A stretch of 64,000 nt of DNA from a virus (taxonomy: Duplodnaviria; Caudoviricetes), in IMG/VR virus record IMGVR_UViG_3300010429_000387, positions 32,001 through 96,000 of that record; one strand, written 5' to 3'. Below the pieces are notes generated by a model. The model was not told the DNA's origin. It saw only the letters and a list, made by a program, of their open reading frames with translations, and made no database searches. This document shows positions 33,179 through 46,973 of this stretch, in pieces. Numbering within the stretch: the first letter of the stretch is position 1; every line of letters begins with the position of its first letter. The position numbers were made by a program, and so were the translations under genes.

Positions 33179-33246
33179 GGGCGAATGCCAGTGTCAGGAC
33201 TACATTCATTTGGAGAACCATGTCTTGACCACACCTCTTGTCGCCC
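33179..33246 (+). ncRNA. Y RNA-like copy 1 (minimal cargo)
   Basis: GGGCGAATGCC..GGACTACA..GTCTTGAC..CTTGTCGCCC. Confidence 0.75.
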
Positions 33247-33251
33247 CCTAT

Positions 33252-33323
33252 GGCCTCGTCTGCTAACGGTAGGCAAGCTGATTCTCAATCAGCAAACGGT
33301 GGGTTCAACTCCCCCCGAGGTCA
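33252..33323 (+). tRNA. tRNA-Glu(CTC)
   Basis: loop TTCTCAA. Confidence 0.8.
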
Positions 33324-33327
33324 CTAC

Positions 33328-33398
33328 GGCCCCATCGACTAACGGTAGGTCACCACCCTTTCAAGGTGCGGATACGGGTTCAATTCCCGTTGGGGTCA
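33328..33398 (+). tRNA. tRNA-Glu(TTC)
   Basis: loop CTTTCAA. Confidence 0.88.
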
Positions 33399-33421
33399 CC
33401 CTCTCGGTGTCATCTACCCTC

Positions 33422-33607
33422 ATGCCGACCTACGAGTACAAATGCAAGGCGTGTGAGAAGACCTGGGAGCAGGACCAGAGCATCAAGGAGCCCCCGGCCA
33501 AGGACTGCCCTCATTGTGGCAAGCCAGAGGCCCAAAGGCTCATCAGCGGAGGGGTCAACTTCCAGCTCATGGGTGGAGGTTGGTCCGGTGAGGGGTACTC
33601 GAAGTAG
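33422..33607 (+). CDS. FmdB-family zinc-ribbon protein
   Basis: MPTYEYKCKAC...CPHCG...RLIS...GGGW. Confidence 0.85.
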   Translation: MPTYEYKCKACEKTWEQDQSIKEPPAKDCPHCGKPEAQRLISGGVNFQLMGGGWSGEGYSK

Positions 33608-33618
33608 GAGGTCGCAAG

Positions 33619-33804
33619 ATGCCCGAGAACGAGTTCACCTTGGTACCCAGGCTTGAGGAGACTGAACCGGAGCCGACCGAAGAAGACCTCCGAAGAATGG
33701 AGGAACACAGGCGTCGGATGGATGAGGAGAGGCGTCTTGCCATCGAGGCAGGGGAGCGGCTACCCCCTCTGAACGGGGAACTGCTCTGGCCCACGAAGGA
33801 CTGA
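33619..33804 (+). CDS. hypothetical protein
   Basis: AGGAGG SD. Confidence 0.5.
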   Translation: MPENEFTLVPRLEETEPEPTEEDLRRMEEHRRRMDEERRLAIEAGERLPPLNGELLWPTKD

Positions 33805-33807
33805 TGT

Positions 33808-33889
33808 GGCTGGGTGGCGGAACGGCAGACGCAGGGACCTTAAAATTCCCCGCCCTTGTGGCGTGAGGGTTCGACTCCCTCTCCAGCTA
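33808..33889 (+). tRNA. tRNA-Leu(TAA)
   Basis: loop CTTAAAA, variable arm. Confidence 0.85.
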
Positions 33890-33895
33890 CCCCAT

Positions 33896-33971
33896 GGTCA
33901 GATAGCTCAGACGGTAGAGCACTTGACTGAAAATCAAGGTGTCACCGGTTCAACTCCGGTTCTGACCACCA
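33896..33971 (+). tRNA. tRNA-Phe(GAA)
   Basis: loop CTGAAAA, ends ACCA. Confidence 0.92.
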
Positions 33972-34109
33972 AACAACGAATGAATGAGAGACTAGCCCAG
34001 AGCCTTGATGTGTGAGATCGAAAGAGGGGTTACCCTCTTCTCATAGTGGCTTGACTGGCACTTAGAAGGGCTCCTACTCTGGCCGTCTTTCAATCACTTG
34101 TCGTTGTTT
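33972..34109 (+). ncRNA. Y RNA-like copy 2 (non-tRNA cargo)
   Basis: AACAACGAATGA..GACTA..GTCTTTCA..CTTGTCGTTGTT. Confidence 0.7.
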
Positions 34110-34112
34110 TCT

Positions 34113-34186
34113 AGGCCGGTAGCTCAGTTGGTTAGAGCGCACGCCTGATAAGCGTGAGGTGTCCAGTTCAACTCTGGAGCGGCCTA
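34113..34186 (+). tRNA. tRNA-Ile(GAT)
   Basis: loop CTGATAA. Confidence 0.9.
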
Positions 34187-34188
34187 CC

Positions 34189-34259
34189 CTGACGAATGCC
34201 AGTGAGGAGTACATTCACTGAAAATGAAAAAGCCCTCTTCACATCCCACTTGTCGTCAG
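34189..34259 (+). ncRNA. Y RNA-like copy 3 (Phe anticodon-hairpin cargo)
   Basis: CTGACGAATGCC..GGAGTACA TTCA-CTGAAAA-TGAA..CTTGTCGTCAG. Confidence 0.75.
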
Positions 34260-34264
34260 AACTT

Positions 34265-34352
34265 GCTCGGATGCTGGAATCTTGGCAGACAGCACCGGCT
34301 GAGAACCGGTGGCCCTAGTGGTGTGGGGGTTCAAGTCCCCCTCCGAGCACCA
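34265..34352 (+). tRNA. tRNA-Leu(GAG)
   Basis: loop CTGAGAA, ends ACCA. Confidence 0.88.
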
Positions 34353-34353
34353 T

Positions 34354-44778: not shown

Positions 44779-44852
44779 GCCTCTGTAGCTCAATGGACAG
44801 AAGCACTGGTCTTCGGAACCAGGGGTTGGGGGTTCGAGTCCCTCCAGAGGCG
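44779..44852 (+). tRNA. tRNA-Arg(TCG)
   Basis: loop CTTCGGA. Confidence 0.85.
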
Positions 44853-44856
44853 CTAT

Positions 44857-44929
44857 TGCAGCAACCTGAGGCAGGAGGCGGGCTTCATAAGCCTGACCAG
44901 GTAGGGTTCGAGTCCCTCTGCTGCAACCA
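44857..44929 (+). tRNA. tRNA-Met/Ile2(CAT), reduced D arm
   Basis: TGCAGCA/TGCTGCA, ends ACCA; loop TTCATAA. Confidence 0.65.
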
Positions 44930-44930
44930 T

Positions 44931-45005
44931 GCGGGGTTCGCTTTCAGGGAGAGCATCTGCCTTACAAGCAGAACCAGGTGGGTTCGAGTCCCACACCCCG
45001 TACCA
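44931..45005 (+). tRNA. tRNA-Val(TAC)
   Basis: loop CTTACAA, ends ACCA. Confidence 0.88.
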
Positions 45006-45006
45006 T

Positions 45007-45089
45007 CGGCATGTGGCGGAATGGCAGACGCCCCAGATTTAGGCTCTGGTGGGAGAAATCCCGTGGAGGTTCGAGTCCTCTCATGCCGA
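45007..45089 (+). tRNA. tRNA-Leu(TAG)
   Basis: loop TTTAGGC, variable arm. Confidence 0.88.
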
Positions 45090-45148
45090 CGAAAGGTGGG
45101 TACCAAGGTGAAATTCAAGATACAAAGGCCGAGTCTCAGCACACTTTC

Positions 45149-45219
45149 CCGTGTGTGGGGCCGGTCGCCTCAGGAGTTCCTATAAAGCTCTGATCCTGGT
45201 TCAACTCCAGGCACACGGA
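45149..45219 (+). tRNA. tRNA-Ile(TAT)-like, atypical
   Basis: CCGTGTG/CACACGG; GGAGTT-CCTATAA-AGCTCT; 3-nt V loop. Confidence 0.6.
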
Positions 45220-45227
45220 CAGAAAAT

Positions 45228-45301
45228 GCGGGGCGAGCAAGCTGGTGAAAGCACCACCTCGACAAGGTGGCCCCCGATGGGTTCGATCCCCATGCCCCGT
45301 A
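45228..45301 (+). tRNA. tRNA-Val(GAC)
   Basis: loop TCGACAA. Confidence 0.75.
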
Positions 45302-45331
45302 CCGGTGTACATATCGACAGAGGAGATGAAG

Positions 45332-45871
45332 ATGAAGACCACTGGATACGCCCTCCGAGAGGCGATCAAACAGCATGAGCTTCGCCGGGACACGGCAGCC
45401 AGGGCCTTCCAAGGCTCCCTGAAGGCGTTTCCTGGTGAGGATAAGGAGACCCCCGTCCAGGTGGTCGATGCTTTCCTGAAGGCAGAGCAATCCATCGCCA
45501 AGCTCCAGACGGCTCAGGCTCGCTACAACCTCACCGTGAGGGTAGAGGTGGCGGGGCTCGGGCACTACCTTGGGGACAAGACCACCATCACCCTTTCCGA
45601 GGCCATCAAGAGCATCGGAGGGATCGCTCGGGCGGAGAAGATGTGGAGGTCCGCTGCTGGACCGAAGCCCGACCGCTATGGTGGGTACCGTGACAATGAG
45701 GATGAACTCGACCCGACCAAGGTCCGGTCGAAGGCAACCATCACCGCCTCCAAGGCGGTTGAGCTGGCGTCCCTCGTAGCCAAGCGAGCAGGCTCCCTCA
45801 GGGCTGCCATCGCTACGGCCAACGCTCGGGAGGTCGAAATCGAAGACTTGGACCCGACACTCTTTGAGTAG
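45332..45871 (+). CDS. coiled-coil protein, possibly DIP1984/DUF6847-like
   Basis: GAGGAG SD; LREAIK..IAKLQTAQARYN..TLSEAI pattern. Confidence 0.5.
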   Translation: MKTTGYALREAIKQHELRRDTAARAFQGSLKAFPGEDKETPVQVVDAFLKAEQSIAKLQTAQARYNLTVRVEVAGLGHYLGDKTTITLSEAIKSIGGIARAEKMWRSAAGPKPDRYGGYRDNEDELDPTKVRSKATITASKAVELASLVAKRAGSLRAAIATANAREVEIEDLDPTLFE

Positions 45872-46077
45872 TCGGGACGAGACAGGACTTCGGTCCTGTT
45901 GGCGAAGGGGCACCAATCAGTTGGCGTGGAGACACGCTGGAACGGAATCGGGCTAGCGAAGGCTTCCTAAGGCACTCAGTTCCTCGACCAGGCGTCATGC
46001 CGGGATGAAGAGGCAGCCACCGAGCTTATTCGTTTTCACCCGGAGCCACATCTTGCTCCTGTTTCCCTTCGCCTTTT

Positions 46078-46109
46078 CGGGGGCTCTCAGTGAAAGCTGG
46101 GAGCCCCCG
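46078..46109. terminator. hairpin between convergent genes
   Basis: GGGGGCTCTCAG-TGAAAG-CTGGGAGCCCCC. Confidence 0.55.
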
Positions 46110-46117
46110 TTCCCTAT

Positions 46118-46747
46118 CTACTCGCCCTTCTTGATGATCTGGATTGAGTCCAGGATCCGGTTGACCGTGTAACCACAGTCCTTGAGATCGTACTTCCGAC
46201 GGGTGATGATGTCTTCGTTGGCGAGGGGGTCATCCTTGGCAAGGGCTGCGATCATCTCGGCTGCCTTCAGGTTCTCCCGAGCCATCTCGACCAGCTCGGA
46301 AGCAGCCTCCTTGATCTCACCCATCTCCTTCGAGTAGTCCCCACCCATGGCCTTCATGAGGTCATCCAGGACGCTCTGGGGGATGTACTTGGAGGGGCTC
46401 TTGAAGTCCTCCAGGGAGAGTCCCTCGACTCTGTGGAAGCCGACTCCCCGCTGACCCTTGTTGGCCGTGGTCCGGACGCTGTAGCTTCCAGCTCGGTCTT
46501 CCCAGGCCACATGAATCTCTACCGAACACTGGGTACCTCGGTTTTCATCCCGGTAGGCGAACCAGCGGTAGTCCACCGTATTGTACCACTCCTTGACGAA
46601 GGTCGAGGGGTCAAACTTCATCCCCGTCTTGTCGGAGAGGTACTTGGCGATGATGGCTTTCCCACGTCCCATCAAGCGATTCAATGCAGAGACGTTGGGG
46701 TTCTTCGGCCCGGATGCGGCGGTCACGGTTCGGTCATAGTCGTGCAT
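46118..46747 (-). CDS. hypothetical protein
   Basis: GAGGA SD; 209 aa. Confidence 0.6.
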   Translation of the reverse strand: MHDYDRTVTAASGPKNPNVSALNRLMGRGKAIIAKYLSDKTGMKFDPSTFVKEWYNTVDYRWFAYRDENRGTQCSVEIHVAWEDRAGSYSVRTTANKGQRGVGFHRVEGLSLEDFKSPSKYIPQSVLDDLMKAMGGDYSKEMGEIKEAASELVEMARENLKAAEMIAALAKDDPLANEDIITRRKYDLKDCGYTVNRILDSIQIIKKGE

Positions 46748-46787
46748 TGCTGGTCCTCTTCGTCGGGCTTTCAACAAGAAGATTTTC

Positions 46788-46864
46788 GCTCAGGTGGTGG
46801 AATCGGCAGACACGCTGGTCTCAAAAACCAGTGCCCTTGTGGCGTGAGGGTCCCTCCCTGAGCA
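46788..46864 (+). pseudogene. tRNA-Leu(CAA) lacking the T loop
   Basis: GAGGG-T-CCCTC in place of GAGGG-TTCGANT-CCCTC. Confidence 0.75.
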
Positions 46865-46907
46865 CAAAGTTGGTTGAAGGGTCTTTCACCCCGGTGTACA
46901 GTAGGGA

Positions 46908-46973
46908 GGCCCTTGAATGAACTGTGGAACTACATCGCAAACGTTCGTTTCACAAAACGCCTTGTCATGGGCC
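46908..46973 (+). ncRNA. Y RNA-like copy 13 (minimal), directly upstream of tmRNA
   Basis: GGCCCTTGAATG..TGTGGAACTACA..GTTTCACA..CTTGTCATGGGCC. Confidence 0.72.

Follow-up and report, generated by a model that had tools for sequence, protein, structure and literature searches.

A Ro60 gene and a tRNA array holding twelve scaffold RNAs

We analysed a 64,000-nt stretch of DNA (the window) comprising bases 32001-96000 of IMG/VR record IMGVR_UViG_3300010429_000387, a 407,078-bp phage genome with direct terminal repeats that is judged complete. Two loci on the plus strand concern us here: a gene for Ro60/Rsr (7005-8648) and a tRNA array (32156-47337), in which ~47 tRNA genes in a single run (32156-45220) and a transfer-messenger RNA (tmRNA) gene (46986-47337) enclose twelve Y RNA-like elements built on one scaffold. 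The Ro60 gene, first proposed in an earlier note on this DNA, is real. Its 547-aa product matches the Pfam families vWA_Ro60 (PF25045, 1.4e-18) and TROVE (PF05731, 2.7e-9), thus combining a TROVE/HEAT ring with a Ro60-type vWA domain, and has full-length likeness to solved Ro60 proteins, aligning with Deinococcus radiodurans Rsr (2NVO) at 9e-25 over residues 14-532. The genome has just this one copy.

The scaffold consists of a covarying closing stem of 6-9 bp, an internal loop of GAAUG opposite CUUGU(C/U), an inner stem ending in GGAC or GGAG, the tetranucleotide UACA and an insert of 12-239 nt, and its twelve members (64-297 nt) all lie on the plus strand inside the array. Using a strict pattern (ATG, 7-14 nt, TACA and then CTTGT, plus an outer stem of at least 5 bp), we found nine loci on the plus strand at 33179-40483, one weak 5-bp match elsewhere and zero matches on the minus strand of the entire 407-kb genome. 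A relaxed scan added the loci at 33971, 35402 and 46908; because its background in shuffled genomes was ~10 matches per strand, only clustered and fully motif-bearing matches were counted. Minimum free energy folds gave every copy the same order of outer stem, internal loop, inner stem and insert, the loop being asymmetric (AUG plus 2-4 nt on the 5' side; ~8 nt ending in CUUG on the 3' side) and the inner stem, which ends in GGAC or GGAG before UACA, being ~8 bp long. R1, a covariance model built from 11 window copies and used for all model searches, recovered its 11 seeds and the non-seed twelfth copy (35403-35697, E=0.003), with no further copy in the 407-kb genome. Matches at window positions 60147-60271 (E=0.5) and over 34 nt in a related record (G005) were treated as false.

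The earlier note had placed 13 loci on this scaffold, of which 12 are upheld by patterns, folds and R1. The exception, a 'variant' at 39763-39839, pairs GTCCGAC with GTCGGAC and has AAATG, yet it lacks the CTTGT strand and escaped detection by R1; we therefore do not count it as a supported member. It sits where the related phage G002 has a true copy after tRNA-Thr(ggt) and is possibly a degenerate member.

The same note had described an outer stem that differs in every copy yet stays paired, and all five stem pairs that it quoted are correct. Aligning the copies and building a covariance model, as it had proposed, yielded clear covariation: across the 11 copies, 98.8% of outer-helix cells were paired and 8/9 pairs had changes on both sides, while 0/500 shuffles scored as high and slid controls fell to 39-59% paired. 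An alignment of 71 copies from 7 phages, Myxococcus phage Mx1 and 2 bacterial loci, which was fitted to the model and so favours pairing, had 88% of cells paired and both-side changes in 15/16 pairs (again 0/500 shuffles reached the score); one inner-stem G.U was kept in 49/71 copies. The 5' and 3' ends thus pair as a long stem, as in Y RNAs, with 93-99% of the outer helix paired and both-side changes in 7-8 pairs. MAFFT misaligned the scaffold when applied to five short copies, and the 11-copy alignment was usable at both ends.

Relationship to YrlA and to bacterial Y RNAs

Comparison with the Rfam YrlA family, another check proposed for these elements, returned the same consensus stem. The RF02553 consensus CgaAUGC..CUAc..cUuGucG describes the same scaffold, its printed form acggCgaAUGCuuggGgaaCUAc ... 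GuucCccaaAaAcUuGucGccg corresponding to GA-ATG / GGAC-TACA / CTTGTC. The base preceding GAAUG covaries with its partner, and the CgaAUGC of the Rfam consensus agrees with the motif of the window copies. In the solved YrlA structure, the inner stem is an analogue of the anticodon stem and a conserved UA introduces a kink or opens the variable loop (bioRxiv 10.1101/312249). The Rfam model matched three window copies below its gathering threshold of 69 bits (34572, 41.5 bits; 36655, 34.2 bits; 34783, 25.6 bits), while a relative found with R1 in a bacterial contig (L114, 5514-5646) exceeded that threshold at 77.7 bits. The Rfam YrlA model misses most members of this family, namely those without a tRNA-like domain.

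The nearest bacterial Ro60 proteins (49-52% identical) come from Pyrinomonadaceae, Blastocatellia (Acidobacteriota) and Polyangiaceae (Myxococcota), and the scaffold adjoins the rsr gene in these bacteria. A Blastocatellia contig carries rtcR, rsr (49% identical), five R1 matches and rtcB in that order, which is the layout of the classical RNA-repair operon, where Salmonella has yrlBA at the place of these Y RNAs (PMC7790460). A 5.44-Mb chromosome has five R1 matches around rsr with RtcB nearby, and a Polyangiaceae contig has five in tandem straight after rsr; no tRNA arrays were present at the bacterial rsr loci examined. Y RNAs are by published criteria (Chen et al. 2014, PMC4201824) expected to have the motif GNCGAAN0-1G and to be encoded on the Ro60 strand no more than ~4 kb away, which is where the bacterial copies of the scaffold lie. 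The earlier premise that a genome usually has only a few Y RNA copies underestimates this Ro60 clade: its bacterial relatives have about five. The Pyrinomonadaceae contig (L114, from a metagenome-assembled genome) groups an integrase and tRNA-Lys with five tandem Y RNA-like elements and Ro60 at 5047-5904, suggesting that integrated elements can carry the Ro60/Y RNA cassette.

Co-occurrence with Ro60 in related phages

We gathered 16 other large records via the capsid gene and compared the presence of Ro60 with that of the scaffold. Complete genomes with Ro60 (G000, G001 and G010) held 12, 8 and 8 copies, respectively, and complete genomes without Ro60 or a Ro60-type vWA domain (G007, G012 and G013) held none, despite having 44-50 tRNAs. 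The related-phage search that had been called for thus found protein and scaffold either together or both absent in complete relatives. Partial records were mostly consistent with this (G002 and G011 hold both; the arrays of G004 and G009 lie at contig ends). The copy number was 8-13 in scaffold-bearing related jumbo phages, and copies were on the Ro60 strand in every genome. In a tree of the capsid region, a single locus in mosaic phages, genomes with Ro60 and scaffold interleave with genomes lacking them (G010 with G007, G011 with G012, and G001 near G013 and G014); gain or loss of the two was therefore coupled more than once.

More distant phages were also searched. The cultured Myxococcus phage Mx1 encodes a Ro60 that is 41% identical and has two scaffold copies in its tRNA array, at record positions 45168-45295 and 45520-45625 (L111, 8606-8711). 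The latter directly follows tRNA-Ile and overlaps an annotated 'hypothetical protein' coding sequence (45524-45646) that is probably a mis-annotation. Around the Ro60 genes of Mycobacterium phage ScoobyDoobyDoo and Streptomyces phage NootNoot, R1 found no matches, and the Rfam YrlA model gave only sub-threshold ones (one full-length in NootNoot, three weaker in ScoobyDoobyDoo). The form with GAAUG, UACA and CUUGUC is thus specific to a lineage. A megablast search of the array against GenBank phages returned tRNA-sized matches only.

The proposal that these RNAs are Y RNAs partnering the phage Ro60 is computationally well supported by the YrlA stem, the rsr-adjacent bacterial elements and the co-occurrence in complete phages. 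Taken with the covariation, this evidence from sequence comparison strongly supports assigning all twelve elements to that class.

Twelve probable Y RNAs with different modules

The inserts fall into several classes. Three copies are permuted tRNA mimics of the YrlA type, with a T arm, a closed acceptor-like stem and a D arm: 34572-34735 (R1 75.7 bits; YrlA E=2.3e-6), in which the acceptor-like hairpin is long; 35787-35940 (71.3 bits), in which the D arm is Leu/Ser-like; and 36655-36794 (75.7 bits), which follows tRNA-Arg(cct), as in G001. Two others have a T arm only, at 34783-34889 (74 bits) and at 40381-40483 (58.4 bits), the latter following tRNA-Gly(tcc), as in G001, and combining a T-arm-like hairpin with two more hairpins. 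The insert of 39556-39684 (63.7 bits) is an unpermuted tRNA-like element (39582-39653; Rfam tRNA 37.3 bits) with an abnormal anticodon loop. The six remaining copies, without a tRNA-like domain, are better called YrlB-like or other Y RNAs. Three are minimal hairpins: 33179-33246 (28.4 bits), between tRNA-Met (CCA encoded, 1-nt gap) and tRNA-Glu; 34189-34259 (47.3 bits), between tRNA-Ile and tRNA-Leu; and 46908-46973 (39 bits), 13 nt upstream of the tmRNA gene. Three have other folds: 33971-34109 (56.9 bits), between tRNA-Phe and tRNA-Ile, has an 82-nt structured module with TAGC replacing TACA and orthologues in 4-5 phages; 34354-34493 (51.5 bits) has a two-hairpin module and a CAAAUG variant for which a U on the 3' strand compensates; and 35402-35698 (19.1 bits) has a 239-nt multi-helix module with orthologues in G001, G002 and G010.

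The description of these RNAs as modular was borne out. 'Interchangeable cargo' was only partly right: modules vary between copies, but the module type found at a given position is the same from phage to phage, which makes the modules conserved specialists that are not freely swapped. Phages with Ro60 proteins just 52-63% identical still agree in where orthologous copies lie, which module type these carry and how it folds, with compensatory changes. For example, the copy following tRNA-Phe is tRNA-like in G000, G001 and G002, and so is the copy following tRNA-Arg(cct) in G000 and G001. The copy preceding tRNA-Leu(gag) is the large form (222-295 nt) in G000, G001 and G002, following tRNA-Pro(cgg) in the first two, and a minimal hairpin is the form adjoining tRNA-Glu(ctc). 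Orthologues of the large module share a multi-helix fold in which 17 of 59 predicted pairs have changes on both sides, and the 33971 orthologue group has common blocks too.

Separately, a hairpin motif, GAAAG-stem-loop-CUUCUC(A/G)UAG(A/U)GG, recurs in three Y-type elements (34017-34049, 35618-35650 and 39786-39822) and once upstream of the window (genome positions 28280-28330). Because the orthologous modules of other phages hold a different hairpin there, it looks like a lineage-specific, swapped-in hairpin.

Directly after the UACA of the large module, 32 nt (35428-35460) resemble E. coli 23S rRNA 1911-1942, a region comprising the helix 69 loop and 3' strand and extending into helices 70-71. 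Four phages have the stretch (L023, 12800-12830 on the minus strand; L024, 5528-5560; L108, 3427-3460; and the window), and it is restricted to the large-module orthologue group. A profile of the four orthologues matched one rrn operon at E=2.2e-5 (nhmmer), and the G001 copy is identical to 23S 1916-1936 at 21/21 positions (E=2.4e-7). At database scale, blastn with the large module as query gave no match in E. coli genomes, and the likeness emerged only in the direct comparison with one rrn operon; we regard it as a lead, not a finding. In the window copy, a C..G pair is changed to U..A, a change that may point to a local CC-UAA-GG hairpin instead of mimicry of the rRNA surroundings. The 33971 module also matches 23S 2100-2113 over 14 nt, but its orthologues do not conserve this match, which we dismiss as chance.

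Proposed release from the tRNA array and a possible role

Y RNAs and tRNAs are packed closely together. Across three phages, 25/33 copies start at most 6 nt from the upstream tRNA or Y RNA and 20/33 end at most 10 nt from the next one. At the window junctions, the Y RNA stem begins 1-3 nt past the tRNA discriminator or CC, and the next tRNA begins 3-6 nt past the stem. A single precursor yields Yrn2, tRNA-Asp and Yrn1 in D. radiodurans (PMC4201824). From the flush junctions only, we infer co-transcription with the tRNAs; the same junctions, with the D. radiodurans precursor as precedent, suggest processing by the tRNA 3'-end nuclease and RNase P. Each Y RNA would thus be transcribed inside a poly-tRNA precursor and excised by the enzymes that mature tRNAs: its 5' end would arise when the upstream tRNA is cut at the 3' end, and its own 3' end, with a tail of 3-6 nt, when RNase P acts at the downstream tRNA.

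The constant stem, with the GAAUG/CUUGUC internal loop as the docking module, would then place each Y RNA on Ro60, and the variable modules would serve as adaptors, each coupling the one Ro60 ring to another partner in the host or another class of substrate. For the tRNA-like modules, the candidate partners are enzymes that handle tRNAs; a further candidate is a 3'-5' exonuclease of the host, for example PNPase. No RtcB, RtcR, PNPase or RNase PH is encoded in the phage genome, so any nuclease partner would have to be the host's. The predicted outcome is that surveillance or decay of structured RNA in the host is redirected during infection. We infer the adaptor role from analogous systems in D. 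radiodurans, Salmonella and Thermus phage phiLo. For the explanation as a whole (YrlA-lineage Y RNAs that partner the phage Ro60, are released by tRNA machinery and carry modules as adaptors), we put the probability at roughly three in four.

Taken further, one Ro60 ring might act as a platform for 8-13 orthologously conserved Y RNAs that mimic different cellular RNAs (tRNA in several modules, the helix 69-71 region of 23S rRNA in one) and so intercept or redirect host enzymes, toxins or decay machinery with tRNAs and ribosomes as targets. This extension is speculative, and we consider it doubtful as a whole; if it were true, Y RNA mimicry would extend beyond tRNA and Y RNA repertoires would be a device for phage counter-defence or takeover.

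Evidence against the proposal and alternative explanations

Several observations count against the proposal of YrlA-lineage Y RNAs partnering Ro60. Every window copy scores under the Rfam gathering threshold, even the best at 41.5 bits, and the 5' motif is complete in few copies: AAUG is present in 12/12 copies, GAAUG in 11/12, CGAAUG in 6/12 and the full GNCGAANG, and with it the published GNCGAAN0-1G, in just 3/12. The Y RNA genes lie 24.5-38.3 kb from Ro60 as opposed to the published ~4 kb, although on the same strand. In addition, one phage (G003, 60% complete) keeps nine copies beside a mere remnant of Ro60, which covers residues ~177-216 and 429-547 in two frames (L117, 2508-2991; G003:C1:230007-230490); either the protein partner is decaying or a second Ro60 copy lies on the missing sequence. 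This last case, the distance from Ro60 and the fact that most copies abut tRNAs would all suit a scaffold unrelated to Ro60, serving as a structured spacer or processing signal of tRNA arrays and resembling the YrlA stem by chance. Such an account is hardly credible, however, given that sister phages with 44-50 tRNAs and no Ro60 hold zero copies, that the bacterial scaffold adjoins rsr with no tRNA nearby and that one relative surpasses the Rfam YrlA threshold. Duplication within the array could instead have raised Y RNA dosage, gating or stabilizing Ro60, with the inserts as tolerated variation; the scaffold is the sole part common to all copies, their number ranges from 8 to 13 among related phages and the locus at 39763 looks degenerate. 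Neutral inserts are disfavoured because orthologous modules are conserved in type, length class and fold, with compensatory changes, at 52-63% Ro60 identity, and we consider this redundancy very unlikely.

A better contender, though still an improbable one, is that the modules are decoys or sponges, with tRNA- and rRNA-like RNAs held and protected by Ro60 to soak up host RNases, toxins or modification enzymes whose usual targets are the tRNAs and ribosomes of phage or host. The six modules with tRNA features (three permuted mimics, two with a T arm only and one unpermuted) would suit this role, as would the 23S-like stretch kept in four phages, in a phage that is heavily invested in its own tRNAs, tmRNA and a CCA-adding-type enzyme. 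On the other hand, no toxin or nuclease target was identified, the three minimal-hairpin copies have nothing to mimic and the C..G to U..A change in the window's rRNA-like stretch fits a local hairpin equally well. YrlA-type tRNA mimicry is also found in bacteria, in which a decoy against the cell's own defences makes less sense.

Other features of the array

Several tRNA-like genes accompany these elements. Between a Y RNA and tRNA-Pro(tgg), the gene at 35947-36020 (Rfam tRNA 45.7 bits) is assigned a four-base anticodon (ctgg) in an enlarged loop by ARAGORN and could be a quadruplet or frameshift-type tRNA. Two more, at 36132-36217 and 46788-46864, were seen by Rfam and missed by ARAGORN. The former is probably tRNA-Ser(cga), given that relatives hold that gene in the corresponding part of the array; the latter, a Leu-like tRNA whose T region is shortened, lies a short way upstream of the final Y RNA. 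Two tRNAs with a CUA (amber-reading) anticodon lie ~3 kb upstream of Ro60, at 3459-3532 and 3791-3867.

Comparison with known Y RNA systems

Bacterial Y RNAs are typically one to a few RNAs adjoining rsr. The closest known counterparts of the RNAs described here are YrlA and YrlB (RF02553), which share the CGAAUG-type 5' strand, the CUUGUC 3' strand, the anticodon-stem analogue and the conserved UA, and are likewise on the Ro60 strand. Three window copies have the permuted order of YrlA (T arm, closed acceptor hairpin, D arm), and the minimal-hairpin members resemble YrlB. In contrast to the 'at least two' YrlA or YrlB RNAs characterized per bacterial species and the one full-length YrlA-model match in NootNoot, there are twelve here. 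They lie 24-38 kb from Ro60, flush among tRNA genes, most of their modules are not tRNA-like and all are sub-threshold. The rtcR-rsr-Y RNA-rtcB operon of Salmonella (PMC7790460) has the layout that we found, with five scaffold elements, in close bacterial relatives of this Ro60; the phage itself lacks RtcB and RtcR, and its Y RNAs are in a tRNA array and not in an rsr operon.

Among phages, YrlA-like RNAs have been reported in 22 (Chen et al. 2014, PMC4201824). Thermus phage phiLo has a Ro60 and two RNAs, Yrl1 and Yrl2, with a CGAA motif, and hijacking of the host PNPase has been proposed (PMC12135203). It thus likewise pairs a phage-encoded Ro60 with phage-encoded Y-like RNAs, but the two RNAs are directly upstream of Ro60, without embedding in a tRNA array or diversity of modules, and its Ro60 is only distantly related to that of the window (E=2e-6 over ~90 residues). 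In D. radiodurans, which has Yrn1 and Yrn2, a modular Y RNA tethers Ro60 to an exonuclease in RYPER (Ro60-Y RNA-PNPase), and by analogy a comparable tether may operate here. The Deinococcus RNAs have no detectable sequence likeness to the window Y RNAs, the Rfam Deinococcus_Y_RNA model giving only chance-level matches in the window (E=9.9, on two tRNA genes).

One clade of phages with genomes of 360-510 kb keeps 8-13 distinct Y RNAs, each with its own conserved module and, judging by the array layout, apparently released by tRNA processing. The present RNAs combine an unvarying docking stem with many effector ends, a natural series that provides material for asking what Y RNA modules recognise, and Mx1 offers a cultured model for Ro60/Y RNA function in infection. 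Systems of this kind were already known; the new features are the number of copies, their tRNA-punctuated arrangement at a distance from Ro60, the conserved diversity of modules and the distribution across a jumbo-phage clade.

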